Positions 3,476 through 43,327 of a stretch of 64,000 nucleotides of DNA are shown here, piece after piece (the stretch's first letter is position 1; each line of letters opens with the position of its first letter). Below the pieces are notes generated by a model. That model saw only the letters and a program-made list of their open reading frames with translations, was not told where the DNA came from and did no database searches. This stretch comes from a virus (lineage: Duplodnaviria; Caudoviricetes). The position numbers and the translations under genes were made by a program. The DNA is taken from the IMG/VR virus record IMGVR_UViG_3300029305_005387. The stretch is one strand, 5' to 3'.

Positions 3476-4315
3476 TTATTTTTTATCTTTGTCATCCGCT
3501 TTAACAGCTTCAAGACCTTCCAATTCAGAAGGAATCTTCTTGTCAACTACGATCATATAGCACTGACGAGCATCCTTCCAGCCGAAATGAGTGATGAACA
3601 TATCTTTTACACTCTGTGTAGTTTTAATGTAGAGAATCTTATATTCTCCAAGTTCATCTTTGAACTTCTCATTAGCATCGTCAACTAATTTAGAAATATT
3701 ACCTTCTTCAGTATCACAGATACCGATAACCTGCCATAATCTTGCCTGAAGAGCTCTAACTGCTGCAGGAGAGAAGATCAATGATTCGACACCAATAGGC
3801 ATAGTAATTGCACCAACAATCAATCTAGACCAAATCTTAGACTCTCTAAAAGGAATATCATTATTCTTCATGAATTTCTTGAAATCATCTTTGATCTTTT
3901 CAACAATATCTTTGATGTCTTTTTTGTCAGATTTATCAACTCTCTCAAACATAGGTCCACTGATAATAGAGTTGTAAATAGCTTCAGCTACAGCTGCTTC
4001 AGTGAATTCTTCCTGATCCTGTTCAGTTGTAGATTCAACAATTGTACAGCTCTGAAGAATACCTAAAAGTTCATAAGACTCTTTAAAGCTCTTCTGAAGA
4101 TCTGCAATTGCAGAATTGTATGCTTCTTTAGTAATAGTGGAACCTGCAGGAATAGAAGGACCAAATTCACCACCCTCAGGTTTTGCAGTAGGTTTTTCTG
4201 TGAGACCACCAGGTACAGATGGACCCATATTTTCTACACTTTCGTTCAATTGCATATTAAGAATGTCATCATCTTTCGCATTCTCAAAAATGCCTAAATT
4301 AAATAAACCATTCAT
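3476..4315 (-). CDS. Probable internal head/virion protein
   Basis: Acidic leader with LNE-S, IVE-S, FTE-A motifs; AACA-N6-TA upstream. Confidence 0.6.
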   Translation of the reverse strand: MNGLFNLGIFENAKDDDILNMQLNESVENMGPSVPGGLTEKPTAKPEGGEFGPSIPAGSTITKEAYNSAIADLQKSFKESYELLGILQSCTIVESTTEQDQEEFTEAAVAEAIYNSIISGPMFERVDKSDKKDIKDIVEKIKDDFKKFMKNNDIPFRESKIWSRLIVGAITMPIGVESLIFSPAAVRALQARLWQVIGICDTEEGNISKLVDDANEKFKDELGEYKILYIKTTQSVKDMFITHFGWKDARQCYMIVVDKKIPSELEGLEAVKADDKDKK

Positions 4316-4360: not shown

Positions 4361-4372
4361 TAACGACATGTT
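4361..4372 (-). promoter_or_regulatory. Late-type promoter AACA-N6-TA
   Basis: AACAtgtcgtTA, matches the AR9 nvRNAP consensus. Confidence 0.6.
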
Positions 4373-4379
4373 CTATTAT

Positions 4380-5921
4380 TTATCGTTCTGTAAACCCATA
4401 ATCTGTAGCAACAAATTCACCATTTTTTCTGATACCAATATTACCCCAATGGATATCAGTTAGTGATATCTTTAATCCTGCGTTAATTCTTGCATCATGA
4501 ATATCATCTAATAATTTATCATATTTCTTTTGGTGGCTAGAATCATGGCGATCTACAGTATCAGTATCTACCAATTCCATAGATATAACGCATTTATTTT
4601 TAGAAATGTTTTCAACTCTTGTCAACAAATGATCAGAATTATTCTTTTTGAATGCGTCAAATACCATTGCTTCAGCATTATTAGATCTAACACCATATTG
4701 AGATAATGCAACTTTAATAGCTACTGGTTCATTTAATGGGAATAACGCTAATCTTGTTTGACCCATTTTAGGTCTTCGTTGATCTGCATTTCCTCTCATA
4801 CGTTTACTACAAATTGCAAATGTATTCCAAGCAATATATTTTGGAGGAACATTTCCAGTTATACAACCTTCGACGAATTTAGATAAATCTTCATTATTGT
4901 CAATCATCTCTGCATACTTAGCATCTATCTCATAAATATGATTCATACATGTGGTGATAGCGTTAATACCGAATTGAAATCTCCAAGATACATCAGCAAT
5001 GAAATTTAGAGCTTCACGAACAATAACACTGTTTTCACCAGGAATGATACTAGGATCATCATAGAAAGATAATGCCTTATGAATATCTTGAATAACTTTA
5101 TTTACTTCTTCAATATTCTTTATATCTGCAACGAATTTGTTAGGTACAGAAGCACCAGTATTCCAATATTGTTTAAATTTATTCACTTTATTGACAAATT
5201 GAGTTTCATTAAAAATACCACCTTCATATTCTTTAGCATTTAATGAAGAGATAATATCTTTAAGTAGATTTAGTTTATCAGGATTGATAATCATATCAAA
5301 AGTGAATACAATAGCATTCCAAGAATTATTTAACGGAGCATGTCCAGGTACAGCATTTCTACCTCGGTTAACCATATTGGAATCTTGAACATAATTTACT
5401 CGAAATAAAAAAGAACTTCCATCTATTTTACATTGTAAATCTTTATATGCTAATGTGATATTTTCTGTATGATCCGTTTTATCATCACCAACAATTGGAT
5501 TGAATGGAATACTGATAGATTTTTGTTCACTTACACTTTTATTAGATTCCAAAGATTTATCATTTGCTGATATTAATGTCTTTTGTGATTTTATACTTTG
5601 ATTATTAGATGGAGATTTAAATACTTCATCAACAATTGCATCTACACTTTGAGTTTTTCGTTTAAATAAATTTTTAACCCAATTAGTGAAACGATTCCAC
5701 TGTTTTGCAATCCAAGTAAATATCTTTTTAATTGTCTCCATAATACGAGTTATAAGATTTTTCTTTGTAACTGGTTTGGAAGTAGCCTCTGATAAAACTT
5801 CTTCCATATATGATGTTCCATCTTCAAAATAATTAATGAAAACATCTTCCTTTAAAATGTTTTAACATTTTAAAGGATTAAAATCAAATTTTTCATTGAT
5901 TACTAAGTCAATATTATTCAT
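4380..5921 (-). CDS. Head-protein leader fused to C-terminal protein-kinase-like domain; in-frame TAA at 5862-5864 (open frame 4380-5807)
   Basis: GQTR loop, VAIKVA, alphaC Glu (NNAE), DIHWGN, DYG; AAGGAGG RBS and ATG at 5921 in frame; leader homologous to paralog 6771-8246. Confidence 0.75.
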
Positions 5922-5940
5922 TTTATCCTCCTTAAAATAT

Positions 5941-5975
5941 AAAAATAAAGGGATCTAAACAATCCCTTTATTTTT
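5941..5975 (-). terminator. Terminator after phosphatase gene
   Basis: 14-bp stem AAAAATAAAGGGAT/ATCCCTTTATTTTT, 7-nt loop. Confidence 0.65.
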
Positions 5976-6706
5976 TATGAATAGAATACTTCCATGTCAT
6001 CTAGACGAATACATGACAATCTACCACCATAATTAGGATAAGCTGCTCCACAATCAATTCCAATAATGTCGTTATCTTCATAGATTTCCATTGGAGAAAC
6101 TTTATTTTCATCCTGATGCAAATGGATTGTTGGTGTGTGACCAAATATAAACTTAACCTTTCCTTGTCCTGAATCTGCTAAATAATGTACTGCTTCACGA
6201 TCCCATACGCAGAAGAATGCTTTTGATTCTTTCAAATCGTCTCCAAGTGTTTTCTTGAATTCATTATAAATGATCTCTGGTGCCGCATGACATAAAACAA
6301 ATTTTTTATCTCCAGCTTCAGTAATGATGTTCAAAGGAAGTTTAAGTAGATAATTGATGATTTTAATCTGTTCGTCTTTATTCAGTTTTAACAACGATTT
6401 GTGAGTAATACCTCCTCCATTATGATACCATAGATCACGATCTTCTTTCAGGTTTATAACCTGATCTTTTTCGTATGGAAATCCTAATGAAGACAGCATC
6501 ATGTATTCGTGGTTACCCAAAATCATTTTTGCGTTTGGCATATTCATAATTCTTTGAAGAATATTAATGCCATATTTACCTCTGTCAACTACATCCCCAA
6601 GAATAAATAATTCATCTTCGTCAGAAAAGTTAATCTTCTTGAGAATAGAATTGAACGCCTCTAAGTTACCGTGGATATCTGATAAAACATATTTCATTTT
6701 ACACAT
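5975..6706 (-). CDS. Ser/Thr protein phosphatase (PPP / calcineurin-like metallophosphoesterase)
   Basis: SDIHG, GDVVDRG, GNHE, HA, FGHTP, IDCG motifs. Confidence 0.92.
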   Translation of the reverse strand: MCKMKYVLSDIHGNLEAFNSILKKINFSDEDELFILGDVVDRGKYGINILQRIMNMPNAKMILGNHEYMMLSSLGFPYEKDQVINLKEDRDLWYHNGGGITHKSLLKLNKDEQIKIINYLLKLPLNIITEAGDKKFVLCHAAPEIIYNEFKKTLGDDLKESKAFFCVWDREAVHYLADSGQGKVKFIFGHTPTIHLHQDENKVSPMEIYEDNDIIGIDCGAAYPNYGGRLSCIRLDDMEVFYS

Positions 6707-6731
6707 CTCCTTTTCTTATTATTCTATATTA

Positions 6732-6740
6732 ATAATATAT
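6732..6740 (-). promoter_or_regulatory. Early-type promoter motif ATATATTAT
   Basis: Upstream of the phosphatase RBS. Confidence 0.6.
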
Positions 6741-6770
6741 CTTTCTTAAGAAAAGAGATGCGTTAATCAA

Positions 6771-8246
6771 TTATTTGCTAATTGCTTTAAGAGAAGTTCT
6801 ATGAGTAAAACCATAATCCAGTGCAACTATTTTACCATTCTTTTTACCAACATTGAAAACGTGTAAATCTGTAATAAGGAATGGAATATTATGATCTGAA
6901 ATTAATTGTTGCATTTCTGTTTTCAATTTTGAAATATCGTCCTGTTTCACTTTCAGAGGATGGATAATCTCAACTCGTTCAGAATCAATTATTACATGAT
7001 CATTATAATCTTTATTACAAACTGCAATTAAATGGTCTCCATTATATTTCTTATACGCATCAGATATCTGATGTTCTGAGAAATTACTTCTAATTCCCCA
7101 ACCGGATAATGCAATCTTATGAACAATTGATTTATCTTCAGGGAAGAAAGTAACTCTAGACTGACCCCAGCAAGGTTTATTAGCTTCAGAATCGGTTCCT
7201 CGAATTTTCTTAGAACTAATCAGATATGTGTTATATGAAACATATTTTGAAGGAATACCATTATCAATCATTTTCTTTACAAATTTTGATAATGTTTCAA
7301 CAGAATCAATACTTCCATAATATGATCCATCGATTAAAGCAACTTCCTTCAAAGAACTAGTAATAGCATTCATACACATCTGCATAGCGGCCAATATACC
7401 TGATATTGCATTTAATGTAAGAATAATAAAACTGACATCTCTATCTTCTTTAAATGAAGAGAAAGGATCATCAATCTTTCTAATTATTTGATCTGCTTCA
7501 TTTAAACTTTTCTGAAATGTAATTAATTGATCAATTGTGTATTCAAATGTTTTATTCATTTGATCAAATTTCATTTGTTTATCTGAATACTCTTTAGTAA
7601 ACTTATTACATTTATCCTGTAATTCCTTTGTAATAACATCTGCGTTTACTATCTCATTTAACAGATCTTTGATTTTGTCAAATTCTGCAGGATTTTGAAT
7701 ATATTCCATACATGATAAAAATGGACCCATTGTCATTGGCGTATCCTTATGACCTTTAATTTTACCATGCATTTTATATCCCATTTTCACTGCATTCCAT
7801 ATAAAGTTAAATTTGATCTTTTTATTATCCATAAATTCAACTAGTACTGGTTTACATACTAATTCAATCTCTTCATCAATTTTAACTTCAGAATTATCAT
7901 GTGATGGAATTTTAATTCTCATATTGTTAGCGAAATTTTTATCAACTTCATGTCGAGGAATATTCATTTCTATTGCTAACTGGTCTACTGTCTTCATATT
8001 CTGTCTGAGAATTTTTGTCTTACAGAAGTTAATAAATTTTGTCCATTGTAATGATAGCCAACCAAAAAGTTTTTTGATTAATTCCCATAAACGTTTGAAG
8101 ATATTTTTCTTAGATACAGCTTGTGATGCTTCTGTAATCACATTTTCTAAGAATTGTACACCTTCAGAAAATGAACAAAAATCTTCACGTATCATATCTA
8201 ATGGATCACAGTTAAATGATTCCATAATAAATGCATTTTCGTACAT
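6771..8246 (-). CDS. Head-protein leader fused to C-terminal protein-kinase-like domain (paralog of 4380-5921)
   Basis: ITE-A then amphipathic helix KNIFKRLWELIKKLFGWL; GQSR, VHKIA, NFSE, DLHVFN, DYG. Confidence 0.8.
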   Translation of the reverse strand: MYENAFIMESFNCDPLDMIREDFCSFSEGVQFLENVITEASQAVSKKNIFKRLWELIKKLFGWLSLQWTKFINFCKTKILRQNMKTVDQLAIEMNIPRHEVDKNFANNMRIKIPSHDNSEVKIDEEIELVCKPVLVEFMDNKKIKFNFIWNAVKMGYKMHGKIKGHKDTPMTMGPFLSCMEYIQNPAEFDKIKDLLNEIVNADVITKELQDKCNKFTKEYSDKQMKFDQMNKTFEYTIDQLITFQKSLNEADQIIRKIDDPFSSFKEDRDVSFIILTLNAISGILAAMQMCMNAITSSLKEVALIDGSYYGSIDSVETLSKFVKKMIDNGIPSKYVSYNTYLISSKKIRGTDSEANKPCWGQSRVTFFPEDKSIVHKIALSGWGIRSNFSEHQISDAYKKYNGDHLIAVCNKDYNDHVIIDSERVEIIHPLKVKQDDISKLKTEMQQLISDHNIPFLITDLHVFNVGKKNGKIVALDYGFTHRTSLKAISK

Positions 8247-8262
8247 TTCATTTCCACTCCTT

Positions 8263-9588
8263 CTATTCTAGATTATATATCTCTTTGATCATATTGTTAA
8301 TATAATCATGTGATACTGTTATGAGAAGACGGTAAGTTCTATGTTGATCCGGATTAGTCAGATGCAACTCCCTTTTATACCAATCAATATAGAACATCTC
8401 ATCATCTAAAATTTTTCCATTCTCACGGAATTGAATTTTAATAAATCTATCCATTGGAATCCCATATTGTAGATGATAATCAATTACAGCATTTAATGAC
8501 TGATTTAAAATATTTTCAATTGAAATAGAACTTTCTTCCATTTTCAATTTGAATATAGGCCATCCTAAAATAGTCCATCCAACAGGGATTTCAAAATCAT
8601 CAAGATTAATTACGTCTGAAAACATTGGTACAATTGCTTTATTTTCATCATTATTATTTACTACCACAGATTTTTTCAAATCAGGAGAATTTAGTGTGAA
8701 ATAACCAATTGTATTAAACTCACAGCGTACAGTAAATGTGATATCAAAGTTCCTTCGTACTTGTCCATCTTTTACTCCAGGTCCTGCTTGAGGGTCTTGA
8801 ATAACTGTATCAATATCAGCAATGTAATACATAAAGAATTCATCTGAATTAGATCCCCCTTTGAGTTTATACGTAATAGGATGATAAAACATACTATTCA
8901 TCAATGTTAAGAAATCATAAACAGAATTATTTTCATCCTTTACTGGAACTTTAGATAGATTTCCAACTAATTCACAGAATCTCTCAGGAATATACAATTC
9001 TAATGGAGCTTTAATGAATTGATTATGTCCAATTGGAAGTGTATTGAATAAATAAGACATCCAATTGATTTGTTCTGAATAAGTATTAAACGATAATACT
9101 ACATCCACATACATAACAGCACGATTATAATGTCCATGAATATATAGATTCTTTTGACGATGTTTAGCTAATTCTATTAATGATCCATCTCCCCATAATG
9201 CATGAGTATTAGTAATTCTACTATTAAGTAGAGTATTTCCAAGAAAACGATTGTCTTCTTGACCAAATACAACTCTTGGAACTAATACCATCATAGGACA
9301 TTCTTTTTTGTGTAATTGATGAGGTAAATGATTTAACTGTCTACTTGCAAGTGTGGTACTAGCAGTAACTGTCTTAAATAAATCTGCTGGAAATACGTCT
9401 AATAAATACTTTTCTACTACACTTAACACATTTCCATATGTATGAGCAGCAGATGTATTACAGATAGCAGTTGTATTTCGTATATGCTCTCCATATGCAG
9501 CTCCGCTATTCTTTTCATATTGCATTCCAACTTCTCTTATTTCAGGATTCGATTTATTAGGATTTACCTGATAATCACGTGGTAACAT
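8263..9588 (-). CDS. Probable virion structural protein (tail/neck region)
   Basis: 441-aa ORF within the structural block; no diagnostic motif recognised. Confidence 0.45.
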   Translation of the reverse strand: MLPRDYQVNPNKSNPEIREVGMQYEKNSGAAYGEHIRNTTAICNTSAAHTYGNVLSVVEKYLLDVFPADLFKTVTASTTLASRQLNHLPHQLHKKECPMMVLVPRVVFGQEDNRFLGNTLLNSRITNTHALWGDGSLIELAKHRQKNLYIHGHYNRAVMYVDVVLSFNTYSEQINWMSYLFNTLPIGHNQFIKAPLELYIPERFCELVGNLSKVPVKDENNSVYDFLTLMNSMFYHPITYKLKGGSNSDEFFMYYIADIDTVIQDPQAGPGVKDGQVRRNFDITFTVRCEFNTIGYFTLNSPDLKKSVVVNNNDENKAIVPMFSDVINLDDFEIPVGWTILGWPIFKLKMEESSISIENILNQSLNAVIDYHLQYGIPMDRFIKIQFRENGKILDDEMFYIDWYKRELHLTNPDQHRTYRLLITVSHDYINNMIKEIYNLE

Positions 9589-10624: not shown

Positions 10625-11683
10625 TTATGCCTTTTTGCCGTCCTTTGCACCAGAACCGATTTTAGTTTTGATGTAACCTTCTAATGCATTCAACATTCTC
10701 TTACGATAGCTCAGATATCTACTATATACACTAATTGTAGCTCCAACACAACCTACGATAGTTGTATAAGCTTCATTCATCTTAGCAATATCTTCTGCAT
10801 TAGGTGTTTCACCTTCAGCTGCTTCAGCAGGCTGTAACATCTTTTCGATTTCAGGTTCCAAAGCTTTAAGCTTGTCTACGAACTTCTGAATCTTATCATA
10901 ATTTGCCTGAATCATTAATCCGGAATGCTGTACATTCTTACTTGCACCCAAAATAAGATCTTTAACGTTGTCCATATGGTATTTCTTTTTACCCTTAACC
11001 ATCTTCTGGCAAACCTTGATCAAGTCTTCAATAGGAATAGCACAAACATCTGTACTACCACCAGAAGATCCATTCAACTTAACAAGTTCATTAGAAAGAA
11101 CTACACACATGTAGAATTCAAACAAACCTAAATCATTACCCTTAGGTGCATCAGCAGCATATTTCAACTTCAACTGATCTCTGAAAGGCTGATACTTTCC
11201 ATGATAAGGAACTGTATTATCCTGACCATCTGCTTTATCGTTCCAGATATCTCCCTGAATCTTATTGATTGTTTCAATATCTTCTCTAGTTAATTCAATA
11301 CCTCTTAAAGATTCAAGAACTTTGTTAGACTGCTTACCAACGTCCGTTAAAGAAGCTGCACATTTAGAGAAGAAGTTAATGACGTTTCTCCACAATTTTC
11401 TGAAACCATTTCTAATTTTTGTAATAATAGAAACTTTCTTAGCTTCTTTAGCTTCCATAATAGACTGAACAGTTGCATCATCAACAGATTCAGCAAAGAA
11501 GCTTTCAGTCAAAGTAATGTTTTCTTTGGTAATCTTTTCCTGCTGTTCCTGCATAAATTCCTGATTCTCTAAGAATCTTTCCATTACAGAAAGTTCAGAG
11601 CATTCTTTAAAAAGGTCGTACGCCTCATTGGAATGAGGATACATACTACATTCAACTACAAGGTCTTTGTAAGTCTGTGCCAT
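10625..11683 (-). CDS. Internal head protein (phiKZ-like head protein architecture)
   Basis: Acidic propeptide with LTE-S, FAE-S, IME-A followed by amphipathic IITKIRNGFRKLWRNVINFF. Confidence 0.7.
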   Translation of the reverse strand: MAQTYKDLVVECSMYPHSNEAYDLFKECSELSVMERFLENQEFMQEQQEKITKENITLTESFFAESVDDATVQSIMEAKEAKKVSIITKIRNGFRKLWRNVINFFSKCAASLTDVGKQSNKVLESLRGIELTREDIETINKIQGDIWNDKADGQDNTVPYHGKYQPFRDQLKLKYAADAPKGNDLGLFEFYMCVVLSNELVKLNGSSGGSTDVCAIPIEDLIKVCQKMVKGKKKYHMDNVKDLILGASKNVQHSGLMIQANYDKIQKFVDKLKALEPEIEKMLQPAEAAEGETPNAEDIAKMNEAYTTIVGCVGATISVYSRYLSYRKRMLNALEGYIKTKIGSGAKDGKKA

Positions 11684-11737: not shown

Positions 11738-12448
11738 TTAGTGTTGAGTCTGAGGCAATAGTTCACTTGCGGCATCTCTTGCCACTGAACTATTATTAGT
11801 AGTGGAAACCATTACTAAATATTTCTGAGCTAAGTTTTTAGCTTCATCATATTCCTCTTTCTGAATATTAACACTTGCTTGCTTTTTAATAGCAGCTGCT
11901 TTCTTAAACATCTGCCACTGTTCAGTATTCTTTTTCTGTGCAATTAATTTTGCACATACATTGATTAACTGAGACATTCTTGTTTCATCATCGAAACTAA
12001 TGATATTCTTTTCAGTTAATACAGCTGCTTCAGATAAAGCATCATTCTTCTGATCAGAAATATCTCTTTCAAACTTCTGAGAGACAAGTACTGGAGTGAA
12101 GATTTTATTGAGTTCATCCATCAGTTCTTTTTCATCATAAGATGAAGATTCTGGTGAATCATTACTCACAGGTAGATCCTCCATATTCTGATAGATTCTA
12201 GGATCTACCATATGTTCCATGATACAATTCATTGCTTCCAACATAGTAGTCCAAGTCATTAAGTTACTTTTCATGACTCCATTATCAGAAGTTGCAGAAA
12301 GATGATTAGGATTATTATGTGGAATATCAGAAAGATCTTTACCTTTACTATCCATACTATCAAGAGTGTCATCTAAAAGAGATTTATAATGTTTATTGAT
12401 CTGATCATCAGATGCTACTCCACCAGTCATAGAATCTTTAAAACTCAT
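11738..12448 (-). CDS. Probable head protein
   Basis: Next to portal; LSE-A motif; AACA-N6-TA upstream. Confidence 0.55.
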   Translation of the reverse strand: MSFKDSMTGGVASDDQINKHYKSLLDDTLDSMDSKGKDLSDIPHNNPNHLSATSDNGVMKSNLMTWTTMLEAMNCIMEHMVDPRIYQNMEDLPVSNDSPESSSYDEKELMDELNKIFTPVLVSQKFERDISDQKNDALSEAAVLTEKNIISFDDETRMSQLINVCAKLIAQKKNTEQWQMFKKAAAIKKQASVNIQKEEYDEAKNLAQKYLVMVSTTNNSSVARDAASELLPQTQH

Positions 12449-12485
12449 TTATGAATTTCCTCCCTTCCTTAGTTATTCCATAACT

Positions 12486-12497
12486 TATGAAAATGTT
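12486..12497 (-). promoter_or_regulatory. Late-type promoter AACA-N6-TA
   Basis: AACAttttcaTA. Confidence 0.6.
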
Positions 12498-12500
12498 TCA

Positions 12501-14837
12501 TTATTGTTCAACTTCCTTCAGATCTTTTTCTTCAATATTGAACTGATTTACTTTGTTCTGTAAAACGTCATCATTAGAATCAATATTAACCTTATTAATG
12601 ATCTCATCCAATTCATCGAAATCAAATTGAGCTAAATATTTCTTAGCCAACTCTCTTCTCAGATTAATTTGTTTCACAGTAGGATTTCCATCTTTGTCTT
12701 CCATTTCATTTTTAGGATAGTAAATCGCCATAACCATTTCAACCATACTATTGAAGTTTGTGATCATTTCGGATGTAATTACCAATTCTTGTTGTTTGAT
12801 CTCATTAAACTTAAATTTGAAACCATTGATGACCTCTGCAGGCATATCAGTACTACTTCTCATAATAGCTTGATATAATTTAGTTAAACCTCTATTCATA
12901 TCAATTTTATATGAAGATACAGTTGATAAGAATCTTGTATTTGCCATTTCCAGAGTTTTAGCAAAATCAACTTCATCTATTGCATTAATGATTAACAAGT
13001 GAGGTACACCTGTACCAGATAATGCCTGTCGTCTTTGTTGTTCTAGGAATTCAATGTTGATTGGATTTGGAACAGCTTCAATTGTATCAGTTTCTAATGC
13101 CTTATAATCGTTACGACCAGCAGGAAGAACCATTTCTCCCATACCACCGACTTTATTTAACACACCTGAATAGGAATAAATATCATCAATGGTAATTCTT
13201 CTCTGTTGGAACTTTCTCATAGTTCTCTGAATCTGGGAAGCATAATCTTTATTTAATCCAGATGATTTTAAGTAGTGAATTCTAGTCGTATTATTATTCA
13301 ATGTATAAAGCATATTATACATATTTAACATTAAATACATACGAGCTGGGAATAAACTAGGTTCAAGAACAGAATGTCCTCTTCCTTCTTCATCTTCATT
13401 AATAATGAGACGAATTACTTCATTTTCTGGGATATAAATAAAGGAAAGTTTTCCTTCAGAGAATTTATGTGCCATTATGATTTCAGCAATTTCATTCTTC
13501 AACTTAATGTTTCTTTCCAACATTTTCTTGTCGAATGACTTGATAATCATATTAGCTAATCTATCAACCATATTACGATCTCTCACATAATTCTGATATG
13601 ACAGATCAACTATACCATTTGGATTAGCAGAGTTTGTCTGTAAGTCCATTGTAGTAGAAATGTAATAATAACCAATTACACGTCTATCCATACGAATTGG
13701 AACAATTCTTAATCCGTCAAGATACTTTATATAACATCCTTTAATTTCAGAATATGAACTGAAATCAATTGCATCCTGATCAATATTAGCATATGTACCT
13801 TGATTAACTCTGCCATAGTTAGCTTGTGCTTCCATGAAGTGCTGTCCAGGATAATTGGAACTTTTTGTAGGTCGTGTTTCTTTATATTCTTTTAACACTA
13901 ACTCAGCAAATCCTTCTGGACCCATTTCTGACATCATTATTGAAGAATGATTATACACTTCAATATTTTCAAGAATGCATCGCATGTTATTCTTAGTAAC
14001 TTTATCAGGATTGAAATCATTTCCACTAATTCCAATTTCATTTTCAGAAACCTTTTTATCATCTGAAGAATCTACTTTACTAATGGATGATACAGATTCC
14101 ATTAAAATATTTAAATTTTCTTCAGAATACAAAGATTTCGAACCACTGAAACTACTCATCACGTGATTTGGTATACTTTCTCTAAAAGTTTCACCTAATG
14201 CAGAAACTTTTTTATTTTTATTTTTACCACCAGAAAATCTAGAATCATGTATAGATTCTAATTCTGCAAATAGTTTTGCATATGGAACTACTTGGATATA
14301 CATCTCTCCATGCATTAATGTTTTAGGAACAATAAAATTCTTAATAGCCATTAATAAATCATGACGAGTTTCAATTTCTTTAGCTTGTGTTTCAAAACTT
14401 TCATCATCTTCATGATTTTCAAATAATAAAGTTCTTGAAACTTCACCAGTTGAAACATTGCATTCAATGATTGAATCTCTTATAACATTTATAACATCAT
14501 GCATTTCAGGCATCTGAGTGCAGATATTATAAATATCTCTTCTTAACAACAATTCACTTTGATTCAATGTATCAGCTGACAAATAATCCGTTTTAATGTT
14601 ATTTAAAACATTCTTCATCATTGATTTATCATGTTTTTCATCGAGATCAATATCTCTCATCTTTTTGATAAATCCTTCATCATCAAATGTAGAAGAATTG
14701 AAAGTTTTTAAAGCTTTATTCAATGTACTTGTAAATGAAGATGAAATATTATCCAGATCATCTTCTTGTATATTACCAACATCCTTAGTTATATCTGCTG
14801 ATAATTTATCAATAAAATCATTTAAATTTGCAGGCAT
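12501..14837 (-). CDS. Portal protein (jumbo-phage type)
   Basis: 778 aa; KTLMHGEMYIQV and ALSGTGVP...EVDFAKTL segments typical of T4 gp20/phiKZ-like portals. Confidence 0.75.
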   Translation of the reverse strand: MPANLNDFIDKLSADITKDVGNIQEDDLDNISSSFTSTLNKALKTFNSSTFDDEGFIKKMRDIDLDEKHDKSMMKNVLNNIKTDYLSADTLNQSELLLRRDIYNICTQMPEMHDVINVIRDSIIECNVSTGEVSRTLLFENHEDDESFETQAKEIETRHDLLMAIKNFIVPKTLMHGEMYIQVVPYAKLFAELESIHDSRFSGGKNKNKKVSALGETFRESIPNHVMSSFSGSKSLYSEENLNILMESVSSISKVDSSDDKKVSENEIGISGNDFNPDKVTKNNMRCILENIEVYNHSSIMMSEMGPEGFAELVLKEYKETRPTKSSNYPGQHFMEAQANYGRVNQGTYANIDQDAIDFSSYSEIKGCYIKYLDGLRIVPIRMDRRVIGYYYISTTMDLQTNSANPNGIVDLSYQNYVRDRNMVDRLANMIIKSFDKKMLERNIKLKNEIAEIIMAHKFSEGKLSFIYIPENEVIRLIINEDEEGRGHSVLEPSLFPARMYLMLNMYNMLYTLNNNTTRIHYLKSSGLNKDYASQIQRTMRKFQQRRITIDDIYSYSGVLNKVGGMGEMVLPAGRNDYKALETDTIEAVPNPINIEFLEQQRRQALSGTGVPHLLIINAIDEVDFAKTLEMANTRFLSTVSSYKIDMNRGLTKLYQAIMRSSTDMPAEVINGFKFKFNEIKQQELVITSEMITNFNSMVEMVMAIYYPKNEMEDKDGNPTVKQINLRRELAKKYLAQFDFDELDEIINKVNIDSNDDVLQNKVNQFNIEEKDLKEVEQ

Positions 14838-18215: not shown

Positions 18216-20846
18216 TTAATTCTCTAATACAGCTACTCTTCGGAATAAACCACAATGACAAAGTCCTATCTCGTTACTTTCTCTAAACTCTTTACACATA
18301 CATTTTGTATCAGGAGTCTTTTCAATAACACAAGGACAATATCCATCGTTTTCTTTAAGCTTTTTCTTAATAAGTTCTACGTGTTCTTTATCTTCATTAG
18401 CAATAATTTTAGTTTTTACATTACCAGATACAGATTCTGCACTTATTTTGAAGGAATCTATAATTTTATTTAATCCTTCAAATACATGTAAAACTTTACC
18501 ATCAAGAGATGTTGATACTAATGTAGGGGTTTTTGTAACATTTAAAGCTCTTGCTAATTCGATATTTGCAGCTCCGATAATTACATCATATTCGGTTCCA
18601 TGGTTATCAAGGAACTTCTTAGCTTCTTTACAGTTAGGGCATGTAGAAGATACAAATAGAATATTTGATTTAAAGTTCTTGAAATAATCTTCAGATATTT
18701 CCAAAGTATTTTCTTCTTTTTTATCTTGATTTAATGGTCCTTCATGAGTTAACTTCGAAGTAGTAATGTTATAATTCTGACGATCATCAAATTCCTGTGT
18801 TTTACCATCATTCCAATTCTGTACAGGACGATAGTACCCAGTGATACGACTGTATACTTCTGTAGATTCACCGCAATGAGGACACTTATATTGTTCACCT
18901 ACTAGATATCCATGATTTTTACATACAGAATATGTTGGACTTAAAGTAATATATGGAAGTCTGTAATTATCGGTGATAGTTTTTACAAGTTTAGCAGCTG
19001 ATTTCCAATCAGATAATTTTTCTCCTAAGAAAGCATGGAATACAGTACCTGAAGTATATAGAACTTGTAATTCATCCTGTACATCAAGAGCTTCAAAAAT
19101 ATCATCTGTACATCCTACTGGTAAATGTGAAGAGTTTGTATAGTAAGGAGTACCATTTTCATTAGCACTGATAATATCAGGATATCTCTCTTTATCATGT
19201 TTTGCTAATCTGAAAGAAGTTGATTCTGCTGGTGTAGCTTCAAGGTTATACAGATCACCATATAATTCTTGATAATCAGATAATCTATCTCTCATAAAGT
19301 TAAGAACAGCTTTTGCAAATTCTTGAGATTCTTTATGAGTTAAATCTTTCTGAATCCATTTAGCATTTAAACAAGCTTCATTCATACCAACAATACCAAT
19401 CGTAGAGAAATGGTTATCTAATGTACCAAGATATCTCTTTGTGTATGGATATAATCCAGCTTCAAGAAGTTTAGTAATAATCGTTCTTTTCACATTTAAA
19501 CTTCTTGCTGCAAGATCCATCAAATTTTTTAGCTTTGCATAGAATTCATCTTTATTTTGTGATAAATATGCAATTTTAGGTAAATTCAGTGTTACTACAC
19601 CGATACTACCTGTAGACTCTCCACTTCCGAAAAATCCACCCTGTTTCTTTCGCAATTCTCTTAGATCGAGCAATAACCGGCAGCACATACTACGGATATC
19701 ACTAGGATTTAGGTCACTATTTACGTAATTTGTGAAATATGGAATTCCATACTTAGCAGCCATTTCAAATAGAAGCTTGTTATTTTCAGTTTCAGACCAA
19801 TCGAAATCTTTTGTAATAGAATAAGTCGGGATGGGATACTGGAATCCTCTTCCATTAGCGTCTCCTTCAATCATCAATTCAATAAATGCCTTATTAATCA
19901 TATCAATTTCTTTCTGACATTCACCATATGTGAAATCTTGTTGTTTTCCACCAACGATGGCAGGAAGATTTTTCATATCTTCAGGACAAGTCCAATCTAA
20001 TGTTACATTAGAAAACGGAGCTTGTGTTCCCCAACGAGAAGGAGTATTTACACCATAAATGAAACTCTGTAAACATTGTTTAGTTTCTTTATAAGAAAGA
20101 TTATCAATCTTTACAAATGGTGCGAGGTAAGTATCAAATGAAGAAAATGCTTGTGCACCAGCCCATTCATTCTGCATGATACCTAAAAAGTTTACCATTT
20201 GATTACATAAAGTTGATAAATGACTTGCAGGTGTAGATGTAATCTTTCCAGGAACACCACCTAGTCCTTCTTCAATTAACTGACGTAAAGACCAACCAGC
20301 ACAATATGCCGTTAACATACCAAGATCATGAATATGGAAATCACAATTTCTATGAGCATTTGCAATGTCTTGATCGTAAACCTCTGACAACCAATAGTTT
20401 GCTGTTACTGCACCAGAGTTAGAAAGAATTAATCCGCCAACTGAGTATGTTACTGTAGAATTCTCTTTAACTCGCCAGTCATTAATTTTCAAATACTTGT
20501 CAATTGTCTCTTTATAATCAATAAGAGTGTTGTTTACATTGCGTAATTTCTCTCGTTGTTTTCTATATAAAATGTAAGCCTTTGCTACTTCAGTATATCC
20601 AGTTTCAGAAAGCACATGTTCTACACTATCTTGAATATCTTCAACACTGATTTTGTTTTCAACAATCTTTTCTTCAAAATCAGAATTGACTCTGATAGTG
20701 ATCAATTCGACTGTAGTTGAATGTACCTTTTTATTTGTAGCATCGAATGCTTTAGTAATTGCAGAAATAATTTTATTGATATTGAAATCAACAATTTCTC
20801 CGCTACGTTTGACTACTTTAAAGTCGTTAGTTGAAAAATGTTCCAT
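18216..20846 (-). CDS. nrdD: Anaerobic ribonucleoside-triphosphate reductase (ATP cone) with fused glutaredoxin-like and FTR-like domains
   Basis: VVKRSG ATP cone, SMCCRL, CKNHG/CPHC, YSRITGYY glycyl-radical loop; CPNC; CPC/CMC/CHC. Confidence 0.95.
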   Translation of the reverse strand: MEHFSTNDFKVVKRSGEIVDFNINKIISAITKAFDATNKKVHSTTVELITIRVNSDFEEKIVENKISVEDIQDSVEHVLSETGYTEVAKAYILYRKQREKLRNVNNTLIDYKETIDKYLKINDWRVKENSTVTYSVGGLILSNSGAVTANYWLSEVYDQDIANAHRNCDFHIHDLGMLTAYCAGWSLRQLIEEGLGGVPGKITSTPASHLSTLCNQMVNFLGIMQNEWAGAQAFSSFDTYLAPFVKIDNLSYKETKQCLQSFIYGVNTPSRWGTQAPFSNVTLDWTCPEDMKNLPAIVGGKQQDFTYGECQKEIDMINKAFIELMIEGDANGRGFQYPIPTYSITKDFDWSETENNKLLFEMAAKYGIPYFTNYVNSDLNPSDIRSMCCRLLLDLRELRKKQGGFFGSGESTGSIGVVTLNLPKIAYLSQNKDEFYAKLKNLMDLAARSLNVKRTIITKLLEAGLYPYTKRYLGTLDNHFSTIGIVGMNEACLNAKWIQKDLTHKESQEFAKAVLNFMRDRLSDYQELYGDLYNLEATPAESTSFRLAKHDKERYPDIISANENGTPYYTNSSHLPVGCTDDIFEALDVQDELQVLYTSGTVFHAFLGEKLSDWKSAAKLVKTITDNYRLPYITLSPTYSVCKNHGYLVGEQYKCPHCGESTEVYSRITGYYRPVQNWNDGKTQEFDDRQNYNITTSKLTHEGPLNQDKKEENTLEISEDYFKNFKSNILFVSSTCPNCKEAKKFLDNHGTEYDVIIGAANIELARALNVTKTPTLVSTSLDGKVLHVFEGLNKIIDSFKISAESVSGNVKTKIIANEDKEHVELIKKKLKENDGYCPCVIEKTPDTKCMCKEFRESNEIGLCHCGLFRRVAVLEN

Positions 20847-28701: not shown

Positions 28702-29238
28702 TTAATCTGTATAACAGTTAACCCACTTATATTTCCACATATTTCCAGCACCTGTGATCACTGCATAATCCTGATATGGATGTTCCTGATGTTCTCTTGT
28801 GTCATGATTATTTTCTTTCAAGAAATCGATAAATTCCTCACGAGTAATGTCTCTGTCGAATGTAAAATCAATCATTCGATATCCGTCTCCATAATGAATA
28901 TGTTTAACAGAAGTCTTTTCGTCAATTACCTTGAAAGGAATCTTTTCAGGAACAACTTTTTCATCTTTAATACACTCAGATGTAGGAATTAAACTGTACA
29001 CGTTAATGAGATCATAAATAGAACCGGACTCTGTAATGATAGTAATGCCATTTTGTAACTTTTCGACATGAACAACTTTTGTTGTCAACCAGATACATTC
29101 GTTGTTAGTAATATCGATAAAACCAGCACGTTTGTAGTAGTCATCATGAACTTTGCTATTGGATTTAACTTTAAACAGTTTACCATTGAGAATCGCTTTG
29201 TCACCACTGAGTGGATTTTTAAGTGTATAAATATTCAT
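28702..29238 (-). CDS. Hypothetical protein (178 aa)
   Basis: RBS; early motif at 29273-29281. Confidence 0.75.
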   Translation of the reverse strand: MNIYTLKNPLSGDKAILNGKLFKVKSNSKVHDDYYKRAGFIDITNNECIWLTTKVVHVEKLQNGITIITESGSIYDLINVYSLIPTSECIKDEKVVPEKIPFKVIDEKTSVKHIHYGDGYRMIDFTFDRDITREEFIDFLKENNHDTREHQEHPYQDYAVITGAGNMWKYKWVNCYTD

Positions 29239-29303
29239 ATTTTATACCTACCTTTCTTATTATTCTATATTAATAATATATTAGAGAATTATAAGAATAT
29301 ACG

Positions 29304-30512
29304 TTAATCAACGTTGAAGTTCATATTGTCAAATTGTTTAATGTCTGCATTTCCTTTACACATGATATTGTATAGATATTCATCTTTCTTATACTTCTTA
29401 ACCATTTTGAATCCACATTTATTATACAAATTCATTGCTACTTCGTTATCAGATTTTACAAACACATATAGTCCTTTATTTGGATTCATTTCAAGAATAA
29501 TATCTTTATAAATTTCATCCAATAATAAACTTGCTAATCCTTTGTGACGATATGCTAATTTTGTTTCAACATCATGAATCAATATCCAGTCAAATCCAGG
29601 CATATCATAATCAACAAATTCTATTTTACAAATAATTTCTTTATCTTTCTTATTTATGATATTATATTCTCGACGAAATTTCAATATCATAACATCTTCA
29701 GCAGTGACGCTTTCTTTCAACACATCTATTTTCTTTCTTGGAAAATCTGGATCTTCGTTATTATTCTCATGATAATTAATATTTAAACGTGTATAGTCAG
29801 GCATTACAAGGTTTCCATTTTTATATTTAAATACTTTATAAGGATCACCAAACGTTGAAATATAAGTGTCTGCAGCTCGCTCCCAACATGTTTCTGATTT
29901 ATTTAGAACACTTTTTATTGGCGTATTAAAGAATACTACTAATGCATCAATTTCATCTGGACTAAGAATTCTAGTATTCTTTAAATGATGTGCTGAATAA
30001 GTAGCACTATTGAGGGAAATATATGCAATTTTATTTTTACCATTAATGAATTCAATATGAACATGTGGATCATTAGTTCCTTCATTACGTTGCATAACCT
30101 TTATTCTGAAACCGAATCCTTTACGTTTATAATACTCATCACACTTATTCATATCAGGAATAATTTCAGCCATTTCACCAAAGAAGAAATCATATCCATC
30201 AATATATTCAACATCGTTACTATTATAATTTACAATTAATTCAGCATTCTCTTTTGCATTAATCATTGTAGATTCATAAACATCCAGAAATTCATTTACA
30301 TATTCCATCAATGCTTCATTCTCTGGAACTTTGAATATTTCACTTTGATAAAACCATTTACGAACACCATCTTCAAATTCTAATAAATAAGCAGGTTCAG
30401 TTGATACTGAAGTGAGTTGATGATTTACTTTCGAAATGATTCCATATTTATCAAATGATTTACCATTACTTTTAATAGCTACTTTGTCTTTTAAATTGTA
30501 TTCTACTTTCAT
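29304..30512 (-). CDS. Multidomain protein: SH3-like, DUF4160-like, C-terminal GNAT acetyltransferase
   Basis: NEGTNDPHVHIEF; YRHKGLASLLL (GNAT motif A), NEVAMNLYNKCGF (motif B). Confidence 0.75.
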   Translation of the reverse strand: MKVEYNLKDKVAIKSNGKSFDKYGIISKVNHQLTSVSTEPAYLLEFEDGVRKWFYQSEIFKVPENEALMEYVNEFLDVYESTMINAKENAELIVNYNSNDVEYIDGYDFFFGEMAEIIPDMNKCDEYYKRKGFGFRIKVMQRNEGTNDPHVHIEFINGKNKIAYISLNSATYSAHHLKNTRILSPDEIDALVVFFNTPIKSVLNKSETCWERAADTYISTFGDPYKVFKYKNGNLVMPDYTRLNINYHENNNEDPDFPRKKIDVLKESVTAEDVMILKFRREYNIINKKDKEIICKIEFVDYDMPGFDWILIHDVETKLAYRHKGLASLLLDEIYKDIILEMNPNKGLYVFVKSDNEVAMNLYNKCGFKMVKKYKKDEYLYNIMCKGNADIKQFDNMNFNVD

Positions 30513-30656: not shown

Positions 30657-31517
30657 TTATTTATTAAACCAGTCTTTTAGCATTGATTGTGTTTTATTAC
30701 GAATGAATCTATCATTGATAGGCTGAACGTAAGTATTAGCTCCTTCGGTGATTACGACTGAATTACCTGTTGAAGTTAAACCAACAATATCTTTTTCGTC
30801 TAAACCAAAAGATTCACATATCCAATTGGCTTCTCTTGAATTAGCAGCAGCCATTTTTGCAAGTTCAGGTAAAAAGATAATTGTGCAACCAAGCTGTTTA
30901 GAAGCTTCTTCTACAGACTCCTGAATTGGTTGATTAATTTTAGCTTGTGCGAGTTTATGTGAGGGGTACAATACCCAGTCATATCCGATTAATTTTCGGA
31001 CTCGGACCACTGGTTTTCCATAAGTATTGTCAAGAGAGCCTAATACCCTAGCACTAAAGCATGGAATGATTTTTCCATCAACAATTTTAATAGCCATATT
31101 CATACCTGCATCAGTACCTGAATCTGTTTGAATAGATGCTTCAAGAAGATTACCAACGAGACGAGGTCTTCTAATATAATGAGAAGATCTTGTCATATCT
31201 ATATTTGATATACGTTGAATAGTTAATTCTTCACCTTGATATGCTGGAGTAGGATGATCAATCTCACCCATCCATGAATTTTGTTTCAACATAGATTGAA
31301 TATAATCATCATTATTGATACAATCCATAATATTTTGAGCTTCATAAATACGTCTATTTCTATTTTGATCACCAAAAGATTGAAGAACAGCATCAAATGT
31401 AAGGTAGAATCTATTACCTCTATCATGGACTTCATATCCAAAATTTCCAGCGTAGTCATCATCAAAAGAAGTCTGCTCATGTATATAGCAAAGTGTATTT
31501 AAATCAAGTTTTTGCAT
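30657..31517 (-). CDS. Prohead protease (T4 gp21-like)
   Basis: LQSFGDQNRNRRIY, GEIDHP, SHYI, FSARVLG, YDWVLYPS. Confidence 0.88.
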   Translation of the reverse strand: MQKLDLNTLCYIHEQTSFDDDYAGNFGYEVHDRGNRFYLTFDAVLQSFGDQNRNRRIYEAQNIMDCINNDDYIQSMLKQNSWMGEIDHPTPAYQGEELTIQRISNIDMTRSSHYIRRPRLVGNLLEASIQTDSGTDAGMNMAIKIVDGKIIPCFSARVLGSLDNTYGKPVVRVRKLIGYDWVLYPSHKLAQAKINQPIQESVEEASKQLGCTIIFLPELAKMAAANSREANWICESFGLDEKDIVGLTSTGNSVVITEGANTYVQPINDRFIRNKTQSMLKDWFNK

Positions 31518-31535: not shown

Positions 31536-33605
31536 TTAACAACAATCCCATGTGAACATTACATGATCAAATCTATTTCTTGCAAGATCTTCTTTACTGA
31601 TGAAGAAGTTAGCAATACCACAATCGCCCCACATCATACCTGCTTCAGAATCTAACTGAAGTAATAGAATGCTATGTTTCTTATCGCGAGGGTCGAATTG
31701 TGTGAAGCTTGGATAGCCACCAAGTCTGGTTCCATAAGATTCATTAAGTTCACAATAAATCTTCCAAGCTACTTTATCTACTTCATTTGGAATCTGAGAC
31801 CATGTCTTCCAATCAGTTCCAAACTCAGCATTCAAATACTTACAGAGAAGATCTGAATAACTTAATTTATCACATTTACCATCAATTGTATACTCCGTAG
31901 AGCTCTGAATACCAATCTTCTGAACAGATGCAGTTGGATAATAAACACCCTGAATAGGTGCGTAATCATCTTCATCATACTTGTTATTAGTATCCTTCAA
32001 TCCAATTGTGGATCTAGGAGGAATATCAAGTAGATCAGTTGCATCAGTTTCTGTGTGATGAATCACCATACAATTTTCTTCATCTTGCCAGCATTCATCA
32101 GAATAAATAAAGAACTGAAGTAAACCTGTACTTGGATATCCTTCCAACTTAGGAAGTTCGGAAAGGTTCAACTGTGCAAGACAGATCATTGGTTTATCCT
32201 TTCCATACATAGGCCATTCTTTATCTTTAGGCCAATAAGGAATACCACCAATCTTTGTTACTTTACGCTTTTTAGGATCATCCTGATCGTGTTTAGATCC
32301 AGGAGTTAATCTAATAGATTTTACTGCAGTATCATCGAACATTTTCTGCATTGCTCGTTTACACTTTTCTTCAATTTCTTTCTGACTAAATTCAGATTTC
32401 TTAGAAGTAGCATTTTTGGAAACAAAGTTATGTTCGATGACTACAGATCTTCGGATATCTTCAATATCTCCTTTGGATCTATTTGCTTTATTACGGAAGT
32501 GGAATTTAGATGGTTTCTTTCCTTCGGTCACATAACCAAATACGGAACTTTCCAAAACGAAATCATCATCTTCATGTTTACTACTGATCTTAGGATTTTC
32601 TTTCTTAATTTCAGTAGCAGCTGCTTTTTCAGTTTCACAAAGTTCGGCACGAAGTTTTTCTGCTTTCTTTCTGTACTGCTCACAAACAGCCTGCTGTTTC
32701 TTGATGATAATTTCTTTCTTCTTAGGATCCATATTTTTCATATTCTCAAGCTGCTCAATATTTCTCTGAATAAATTCTACCTGCTGTTCAAGAGAAAGAA
32801 TTGTATCAGCTTTCTTCTTATAACGAAGATAAATGATAGAACGAATCAAAGGAATAATACCAAACATTGTATTTTTAATAGATTTAAAAATGTTTGCTCC
32901 AGCTTTTACAATTTTACCAGTACTATTGAATAGAGCAGAGATCAGTTCAATAGTATCTCCAATGGAAGCTTCAGTAAAAGAAGTGTATTCATTTACAGAT
33001 ATCTCTTTATTATTAACAGCGTTAATTAATTCTTCCAAATAATCTCTGTGTTTACTGTCTGTAAGCTGTTTAGCAAGATCTTTCAATGTTTTAGGAATAA
33101 TTCCAAATGTCGTAGCAGATTTCTTTTGAATACGAATCTCTGTACCATTACTAACAACATCCATATTGTTTGCCATAATCATGGATAAAGAAGTTACTAA
33201 AAGATATACGGAGTTTTCATATTCCAGAACTACCAAACGCACATTCTTATCATATGCATCAGTATATAAAGACTGATACCTTTCTAAAGACTCAAAAACT
33301 TTATCACATTCTTTAACAGATTCAAGAGTTCCTAAATTCTTCTTAAGGAAAGATAAAGCACTCTTGATATTTTCATATGCAGAAAAGTTTCTAATATTAC
33401 CTCTGGATTTAGAGATTCTTTCATCTTTAACCACATCTTTAGAAGCAATCTTCTCAATATCTGTGATAAAATTCTTCAAGTATGTAAGTCCAGTTTTTGT
33501 ATCTTTATCAACATTACTAGCTGCTTCCATATAAGCTGGACTAATTCTATTGGAAGTACCAGCAATAATTTCAAGATAATTATTACAAATAGAATACTGT
33601 TCCAT
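31536..33605 (-). CDS. Head structural protein fused to C-terminal YwqG/DUF1963 domain
   Basis: TKIGGIPYWP, LAQLNLSELP, GLLQFFI, LGGYPSFTQFDPR, LLQLDS, MWGDCGIANFFI, WDCC. Confidence 0.8.
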   Translation of the reverse strand: MEQYSICNNYLEIIAGTSNRISPAYMEAASNVDKDTKTGLTYLKNFITDIEKIASKDVVKDERISKSRGNIRNFSAYENIKSALSFLKKNLGTLESVKECDKVFESLERYQSLYTDAYDKNVRLVVLEYENSVYLLVTSLSMIMANNMDVVSNGTEIRIQKKSATTFGIIPKTLKDLAKQLTDSKHRDYLEELINAVNNKEISVNEYTSFTEASIGDTIELISALFNSTGKIVKAGANIFKSIKNTMFGIIPLIRSIIYLRYKKKADTILSLEQQVEFIQRNIEQLENMKNMDPKKKEIIIKKQQAVCEQYRKKAEKLRAELCETEKAAATEIKKENPKISSKHEDDDFVLESSVFGYVTEGKKPSKFHFRNKANRSKGDIEDIRRSVVIEHNFVSKNATSKKSEFSQKEIEEKCKRAMQKMFDDTAVKSIRLTPGSKHDQDDPKKRKVTKIGGIPYWPKDKEWPMYGKDKPMICLAQLNLSELPKLEGYPSTGLLQFFIYSDECWQDEENCMVIHHTETDATDLLDIPPRSTIGLKDTNNKYDEDDYAPIQGVYYPTASVQKIGIQSSTEYTIDGKCDKLSYSDLLCKYLNAEFGTDWKTWSQIPNEVDKVAWKIYCELNESYGTRLGGYPSFTQFDPRDKKHSILLLQLDSEAGMMWGDCGIANFFISKEDLARNRFDHVMFTWDCC

Positions 33606-43279: not shown

Positions 43280-43327
43280 AATTATTACCTCCTTTTATAA
43301 ATTAATAATATATAAATAAAAAGAAAA

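Follow-up and report, generated by a model that had tools for sequence, protein, structure and literature searches.

In a 64,000-nucleotide (nt) stretch of DNA from an uncultured gut jumbo phage (IMG/VR record IMGVR_UViG_3300029305_005387; this whole stretch, part of the genome, is referred to here as the window), two paralogous genes, which we term K1 and K2, flank a gene for a PPP-type phosphatase. All three open reading frames (ORFs) are on the minus strand, and they are found at the coordinates given in an earlier note made from the sequence alone. We propose, with a probability of about 0.5, that K1 and K2 are members of the internal-head-protein family of this phage in which the variable C-terminal part has become a minimal kinase that would be packaged and injected, and that the phosphatase is a separate early cassette. 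K2 (6771-8246, minus strand) is a 491-residue protein composed of an acidic leader, a cleavage-type site, an amphipathic helix, a variable middle domain, and a truncated kinase core, and it matches the profile of the kinase family with an E value of 5e-191. K1 (4380-5807, minus strand), a 475-residue open frame with the catalytic residues present, matches the same profile with an E value of 7e-150, and the two paralogs share 29% identity over their full length (E 3e-52). The phosphatase (5975-6706, minus strand) is a 243-residue PPP metallophosphatase of the lambda phosphatase/NinI-like type. Since the kinases carry a head-protein leader and the phosphatase carries an early-type promoter, the phage may inject its kinases together with its DNA.

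Head-protein module and kinase-like domain of K1 and K2

The N-terminal region of K2 begins with an acidic leader of residues 1 to 39 (8130-8246, minus strand), which ends in V-I-T-E/A (a slash marks a candidate cleavage point) and harbors an earlier I-M-E/S site at residue 9. A Lys/Trp/Phe-rich amphipathic helix follows (8001-8111, minus strand; residues 46 to 82, with the predicted helix covering 49 to 82), which would constitute the mature N terminus. The K1 ORF starts with M-E-E-V-L-S-E/A. All residue-conservation counts given here were taken over 138 family representatives. Of these, 120 have Glu at P1, 119 have Ala, Ser, or Gly at P1', and 130 have a hydrophobic residue at P3. Leaders have a length of 42 residues and a net charge of -9 (both medians), and the net charge is negative in every member. 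The first residues of the kinases follow the pattern M-x-x-D-x-I-L-E/S, with a Glu at residues 6 to 9 in 75 cases. The earlier note had described an acidic propeptide, a hydrophobic-x-Glu-Ala site, and a helix at the start of both ORFs; this holds for K2, which retains the whole leader, and the homology of the module described next adds to it, but the K1 ORF starts midway through the leader, as detailed below.

The same note had likened the helix to that of the protein encoded at 10625-11683 (minus strand), and the alignments agree. This protein is an internal head protein of the phiKZ_IP type (PF12699; E 2.7e-9, 37.2 bits versus a cutoff of 27), and comparison of the kinase family with the head-protein family by hhalign (92%, E 6.8e-7, 65 columns) aligns Glu39 of K2 with Glu65, which is invariant in the head-protein family. 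A jackhmmer search started from the head protein recovers first its paralogs with differing C termini and then the kinases, and a hidden Markov model built from the kinase N termini alone retrieves the head-protein paralogs of relatives with E values down to 7e-8. PF12699 is also the most frequent Pfam match among members of the kinase family (12 of 90), all of these matches being subthreshold and the best having an E value of 1e-4. In complete relatives, the N-terminal module is found on other ORFs as well, without a kinase domain. From these alignments, homology of the kinase N-terminal module to the phiKZ_IP-type head-protein module of the phage is well supported. A match to the N-terminal module in phiR1-37 (E 1.3e-3) was judged spurious, as it lies at the end of g144 and spans a stop.

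A candidate processing enzyme is encoded at 30657-31517 (minus strand), where matches to Peptidase_S80 (6.2e-15, above cutoff), Peptidase_S77 (T4 gp21; 7e-6), and phrog_3014 (3e-25) give good support, at the level of sequence profiles, for a prohead maturation protease of the gp175/gp21 type. Relatives of the S80 protease in SPN3US cut after A-x-E (PMC10052503), some inner-body proteins of phiKZ are injected with the genome (PMC13282480), and the capsid-targeting sequence of T4 is MKTYQEFIAE (bioRxiv 10.1101/2021.01.19.427310). The kinase N terminus is similar to this targeting sequence in length and ending, but unlike it in sequence. A separate observation concerns the head-protein paralogs (10625-11683 and those of related loci L001-L004), which begin with M-(K/A)-x-T-Y-x-(E/D)-L-x-x-E, for example MKTYxELxxE or MAQTYKDLVVE, and are very near the T4 sequence; the phage thus combines a T4-like capsid-targeting start with phiKZ-type polymerases and an S80 protease.

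Two known groups of packaged proteins provide a frame of reference for K1 and K2. Like the internal head or inner-body proteins of phiKZ (PF12699; gp93, gp95, gp97, and others), to whose counterparts in this phage the kinase leader and helix are homologous, they belong to a paralog family within the head gene cluster of a phage that encodes an S80 prohead protease. Unlike these proteins, which are without an assigned enzyme activity, they have a kinase core as C-terminal part, and P3 is hydrophobic, as in T4, rather than Ser, Ala, or Gly as in phiKZ. The logic would be the same as that of T4 Alt and IPI-III, where cargo of various kinds is loaded into the prohead by means of a short N-terminal peptide with a hydrophobic-x-Glu end, gp21 removes the peptide, and DNA and cargo pass into the next cell together. 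Alt is likewise an enzyme and modifies host RNA polymerase, although by ADP-ribosylation rather than the phosphorylation predicted here; furthermore, the first ten residues of the kinases differ from those of the T4 proteins, and their leader of ~40 residues has two candidate sites.

The last ~190 residues of K1 and K2 are well supported by structural modeling as a kinase-like fold with intact catalytic residues, in keeping with the compact kinase fold that the first reading of the sequence had suggested from its Lys, Glu, DxHxxN, and DYG motifs, all of which are present in both proteins. In K2, the core comprises residues 345 to 485 (6792-7214, minus strand) and contains Lys377, Glu391, Asp460-x-His-x-x-Asn465, and Asp477-Tyr-Gly. 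An AlphaFold2 model of whole K2 has a predicted local distance difference test (pLDDT) score of 78.8 and a predicted template-modeling (pTM) score of 0.78, and a model of the domain (residues 300 to 491), built from an alignment of 76 sequences, reaches a pLDDT of 95.6 and a pTM of 0.90. An exhaustive structural search with this domain returned 54 chains with Z ≥ 8, the top 50 of which all have the protein kinase-like (PKL) fold or the related SAICAR-synthase fold. Matches of protein-kinase type include RIO2 (Z 10.2, 155 residues aligned, root-mean-square deviation 4.3), Bud32 (9.9), and Rio1 (9.8), and other kinases include the RNA kinase ArkI (Z 9.9, 120 aligned) and APH(2'') (9.8). Foldseek finds 34 kinases with E ≤ 1e-3, the best at 1.7e-5, among them RIO2, PRPK, VRK2, NleH, OspG, and Lpg2603. 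When the sequence profile of the domain was compared with the Protein Data Bank (PDB), all 19 matches were kinases, with weak E values and aligned on the catalytic loop and DFG, such that the catalytic Asp and Asn and the DYG fall on the HRD..N and DFG of KSR and PknB-type kinases. When the PDB was searched with full-length sequences and profiles, coiled-coil noise from the middle region was returned and nothing else, and the middle domain (residues 95 to 305) obtained low scores in the Atlas, 0.75 to 0.78 only. Many small stand-alone phage proteins with a kinase-like fold are found in BFVD.

The catalytic residues are nearly invariant. Lys377 is present in 138 of 138 representatives and Glu391 in 127, the other 11 having Asp, and both are found in the expected elements of the model (strand 3 and helix C, respectively). 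Asp460 is conserved in 134, Asn465 in 130, Asp477 of the DYG in all 138, and Tyr478 in 134; Gly361 and Arg364 are likewise found in every representative. Pfam returns subthreshold ABC1 and YrbL matches for the kinases and no Pkinase match among the window proteins and family members scanned. Canonical protein-kinase features are missing at both ends of the core: W-G-Q-S-R stands in place of the GxGxxG loop, and the APE activation segment and helices F to I are absent. The distance from the DYG Asp to the C terminus is a median of 10 residues across the family, so the proteins are without the activation segment and the post-DFG helices of even the smallest known kinases, and the core, which ends just past DFG, is shorter than the smallest kinases described. 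The best fold matches (RIO1/RIO2, Bud32/PRPK, NleH, and OspG) are also without an activation loop and share the Lys, the Glu, D-x-x-x-x-N, and D-(F/Y)-G with the phage core. Unlike them, the phage core lacks everything beyond ~10 residues past the DYG, has the substituted loop with its invariant Gly and Arg, and is preceded by conserved helices (residues 316 to 343) ahead of the N-lobe, which align with the RIO-specific N-terminal helices. T7 gp0.7 is also a phage kinase and is thought to target host proteins at the very start of infection; it is the product of an early gene expressed once the DNA has entered, and virions do not contain it. No sequence similarity of the phage kinases to gp0.7 was detected in this analysis.

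The phosphatase cassette and the distribution of the locus

The gene between K2 and K1 had been read as a PPP phosphatase with its own motif and terminator and as early-expressed. The evidence bears out the enzyme type, the motif, and the terminator, and the motif makes early expression a likely prediction. The protein matches Pfam Metallophos (8.6e-14, above cutoff) and phrog_246 (5.4e-49) and is similar to lambda phosphatase (PDB 1G5B) over residues 6 to 195 (E 3e-13), with the metal-binding motifs S-D-I-H-G, G-D-V-V-D-R-G, G-N-H-E, C-H-A, and G-H-T-P aligned. PPP motifs and full-length similarity are common to this phosphatase, lambda NinI, and E. coli PrpA/PrpB. The NCBIfam equivalog level is not reached (58 and 53 bits for PrpA/PrpB versus cutoffs of 332 and 326; 65 versus 176 for ApaH), and in contrast to lambda NinI, the gene here forms an early-type cassette inside a structural operon next to the kinases.

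The motif ATATATTAT, a candidate core of an early promoter used by a virion RNA polymerase, is located 26 nt before the phosphatase start codon (6732-6740, minus strand). There are 14 exact copies of ATATATTAT in the window versus 5.3 expected, a number reached by 0 of 100 shuffles, and 11 of the 14 lie 20 to 75 nt before a same-strand start codon; copies with one mismatch occur at chance level (118 versus 114 expected). In AR9, the injected virion polymerase reads an early promoter of the form AAATATATATTAT-(6N)-G, which a single mismatch abolishes (PMC5312081). ATATATTAT is identical to the core of this promoter, and its distance from start codons (20 to 60 nt) and apparent sensitivity to single mismatches are also those of early promoters of the AR9/phiKZ group; the flanking AAAT is not conserved, and the G is found 8 rather than 7 nt past the core. 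In L003 and L004, ATATATTAT lies just before the phosphatase gene and is the only plus-strand copy in 18 kb and 21 kb, respectively, and in L010 a one-mismatch copy is found before the phosphatase. Of 13 kinase genes in relatives, 12 lack the motif in the 200 nt upstream, and the kinase genes of the window have no copy before them. An intrinsic terminator with a 15-pair stem followed by a T run (5941-5975, minus strand) closes the gene, and a terminator is found at the same place after the cassette in L003 and L004, that is, in all three phages examined. By its core sequence, placement, and conservation, the phosphatase motif is a well-supported candidate for an early-type promoter. We dismissed ATATATAAT, which precedes K2, as a near-match promoter because one-mismatch copies occur at chance level.

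Two further observations concern this cassette. The promoter regions of the phosphatase (6741-6770) and of a gene for a 178-residue protein at 28702-29238 (29282-29311) are nearly identical over ~60 nt, consisting of TTGATTAACG, a spacer, and ATATATTATTAATATAGAATAATAAGAAA, and this shared region looks like a duplicated early-promoter cassette. In L004, an additional small ORF of ~90 residues (12284-12556) is situated between the phosphatase gene and the terminator, inside the early cassette.

The kinases belong to a large family of uncultured phages. A word-indexed search retrieved 12 relatives of the kinases, and a profile search of 1.84 billion cluster representatives returned 518 at E ≤ 1e-3, of which 252 reach E ≤ 1e-30; nearly all are 450 to 580 residues long and match end to end; the family therefore comprises at least 252 metagenomic clusters at 50% identity, which is a lower bound. 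A single-sequence scan of viral contigs found no kinase relative, and an alignment-based scan was required. Two complete IMG/VR jumbo genomes (231 and 294 kb) harbor one and three kinase copies, and AR9 is without a member. Its members lack annotation and come exclusively from uncultured jumbo phages of gut and rumen type. Neither the family nor its architecture is described in the literature searched; the PHROGs match is to phrog_4301, a group of unknown function, and a 2026 review of jumbo phages nowhere mentions kinases or phosphatases.

We compared the arrangement of kinase and phosphatase genes among related loci, treating the window as a separate locus and merging L004 with L005 and L007 with L013. 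The order kinase-phosphatase-kinase is found in the window and in L004/L005, phosphatase-kinase-kinase in L003, and phosphatase-kinase in L010, and a kinase stands alone in L001, L002, L006, L007/L013, L008, L009, L011, and L012. Synteny thus supports the locus described in the earlier note in one respect and not in another: the phosphatase directly abuts a kinase gene in 4 of the 4 loci that have one, an adjacency kept despite divergence to 44 to 55% protein identity, but most related loci have a kinase alone. The order common to the window and L004 is retained although K1 and its ortholog are 44% identical. In a phylogenetic tree, K1 pairs with L004_Kb, the kinase downstream of the L004 phosphatase (support 100/100), and K2 pairs with the kinase of the phosphatase-less L001 (99/99); both the duplication and the arrangement are therefore older than the divergence of these phages, and may represent one ancestral event only.

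Strength of the reading and alternative explanations

As we picture it, each kinase would be made together with the other head proteins, enter the prohead by means of its acidic leader and amphipathic helix, be trimmed after hydrophobic-x-Glu by the S80-type prohead protease, and exit the capsid together with the DNA. Once in the new cell, it would use ATP to phosphorylate host targets before any phage gene is read. The phosphatase, with its own candidate virion-RNA-polymerase-type early promoter and its own terminator, is embedded in the structural operon as an early-type cassette and would thus differ from the kinases in the time of its synthesis. In the phosphatase-bearing lineage, it may remove the marks of the kinases or other phosphate marks. 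That the kinases are packaged, cleaved, and injected we infer from the analogous cases of T4 Alt, the internal proteins of T4, and the inner-body proteins of phiKZ, and we likewise infer their substrate and any kinase-phosphatase link. A more elaborate version, in which capsid-loaded kinases fired in with the DNA and an ensuing early-promoter phosphatase form a two-step phosphorylation switch that operates without host transcription, with the kinase as a new minimal form ending at DFG, we regard as improbable.

Several observations weigh against the reading as a whole or against its parts. The kinases of the window miss the PF12699 threshold, K1 with an E value of 0.35 (10.5 bits versus the cutoff of 27) and K2 with no match, and tblastn searches with K2, K1, P0007, and the L007 kinase found no family member in any cultured phage among 50,697 GenBank phage records. 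With everything after DFG absent and the canonical Gly-rich loop missing, activity may be unusual or depend on a partner, and in the fold search ArkI and the aminoglycoside kinases tie with protein kinases. In L009 (2488-2563), an exact early motif lies 75 nt before a kinase ORF that has an N-terminal extension, a possible exception to the kinases not being early genes. K1 directly follows the terminator and lacks a recognizable promoter, and a stop codon interrupts its leader. Finally, the phosphatase is near kinases in only 4 of 11 distinct loci, and these four may derive from a single ancestral insertion; the complete jumbo genomes G002 and G003, with one and three kinase genes, have no phosphatase homolog. 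The phosphatase is therefore an accessory of one lineage rather than an obligate partner, and the suggestion in the earlier note of a timed switch in which it resets the signal of the kinases is weakened since two complete relatives hold kinases but no phosphatase; its sparse occurrence and the interrupted leader of K1 count against that suggestion as well.

The nature of the K1 lesion leads to a first alternative, that in this phage K2 alone is functional and K1 a decaying pseudogene, which we take seriously without considering it probable. Relative to the family leader, the K1 ORF begins midway. Its ancestral start codon is ATG 5921, with AAGGAGG ahead of it, from which a detached segment of 19 codons (5862-5921, minus strand) leads to an in-frame TAA (5864-5862), and K1 read through this stop, with X in its place, aligns with the family profile from position 2. 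The TAA lies in the 4-nt loop of a perfect 13-bp hairpin (5848-5877, minus strand) followed by a weak T run; its place at the hairpin apex resembles a template-switch lesion or a regulatory element. The stop is reproduced without differences in contigs of two runs (X1 and X5), and with the preceding terminator and the missing promoter it speaks for decay. On the other hand, the remaining 475 codons are open, with all conserved residues intact, the internal ATG retains the L-S-E/A site, and the L004 ortholog is intact. K1 may be translated from ATG 5807 minus the first part of the leader, or be decaying; having lost the first 19 leader codons to the stop, it may be unpackaged or poorly expressed. 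About as plausible is that the phosphatase is functionally unrelated to the kinases, being a self-contained early cassette that entered the structural operon once, at a permissive site, where it might, for example, counter a kinase- or nucleotide-based host defense. Its own promoter and terminator, its absence from the two complete kinase-bearing genomes and from most loci, its varying position relative to the kinases (before, between, or ahead of two of them), and the additional small ORF in the L004 cassette are all as this explanation would have them; against it stands the adjacency to a kinase gene in every phosphatase-bearing locus, which has outlasted considerable protein divergence.

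Two less likely explanations concern what the kinases do. They could be packaged or late proteins whose substrate is not a host protein but RNA, a small molecule, or an envelope component, with the phosphatase acting on the product or on nucleotides, an unlikely but concrete possibility given the tie in the fold search of ArkI and APH(2'') with RIO2. Archaeal ArkI places a 2'-phosphate on tRNA. It is a small enzyme of kinase fold with tRNA as its target (PMC9095486). The substrate-binding C-lobe helices of protein kinases are absent from the phage kinases, and the N-terminal part of the phosphatase (residues 5 to 74) also matches the ApaH Ap4A hydrolase (E 8e-18). However, the best full-length matches of the phosphatase are protein phosphatases (lambda phosphatase and PrpA/PrpB, over ~190 residues), the minimal effector protein kinases NleH and OspG also match the kinase domain, and the phage kinases showed no sequence feature peculiar to RNA or aminoglycoside kinases. 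We give still less weight to action in the producing cell or the assembling head, where the kinases would phosphorylate head or scaffold proteins or serve as ATP-binding inner-body parts, with no role after injection. The N-terminal module is the same as that of abundant head-internal proteins, the truncated core suggests limited substrate handling, and RIO kinases, to which the structural match is best, function mainly as assembly ATPases. Near-invariance of the catalytic Asp, Asn, and Asp, however, points to phosphotransfer chemistry, and the packaged enzymes of T4 and some phiKZ head proteins do reach the next cell.

Gene neighborhood and biological meaning

The minus-strand gene order around the locus is a structural gene (8263-9588), K2, the phosphatase, K1, and a gene for a 279-residue protein. 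The first of these, a virion structural gene directly upstream of K2 (phrog_21946), encodes a protein 21% identical over 88% of the query to phiR1-37 g272, a "phage structural protein" (tblastn, E 8e-10); K2 starts 16 nt past it, and the exact early motif is absent from the gap. Kinase neighbors are structural genes in the window and head-protein paralogs in L003. In phiR1-37, g271 occupies the position of the kinase and is not a homolog of the kinases. The AR9 late-promoter consensus, AACA-N6-TA, occurs on the minus strand at 4372, 11745, 12497, 14898, 22521, and 35477, which is 45 to 62 nt before the start codons of structural genes at 4315, 11683, 12448, 14837, 22475, and 35418. We did not adopt it as a late promoter, as it is too short for a reliable call, and no copy lies directly before K2 or K1.

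Elsewhere, the window contains genes for a subunit of a phiKZ-type multisubunit RNA polymerase, an anaerobic ribonucleotide reductase, and topoisomerase II. The reductase NrdD, an 876-residue ORF at 18216-20846 with a fused thioredoxin-like segment and a short C-terminal domain, is anaerobic and therefore consistent with an anaerobic gut host. A 689-residue protein (31536-33605) with a C-terminal DUF1963/YwqG domain (3e-51) is encoded adjacent to the prohead protease gene, and a 585-residue protein (41522-43279) has both C-terminal domains of polyphosphate kinase 1 (PP_kinase_C_1, 5e-38; PP_kinase_C, 3e-33), with an early motif upstream of its gene at 43305. The phage has a G+C content of ~31%, and no near relative was found among GenBank phages by megablast; near-identical DNA has been sequenced in at least 13 studies, in metagenomes of animal feces and gut, and the sequencing runs listed as containing it include none of RNA.

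Injected phage proteins act before phage gene expression, in the phase of greatest exposure to host defenses. Those known include T4 Alt, the T4 internal proteins, virion RNA polymerases, and the inner-body proteins of phiKZ. A kinase core that stops just past DFG is of structural interest. If the proposed reading of K1 and K2 as packaged and injected members of the internal-head-protein family is correct, they would represent the first predicted enzymatic member of the inner-body protein family, and phosphorylation would join the first-minute toolkit of injected proteins.

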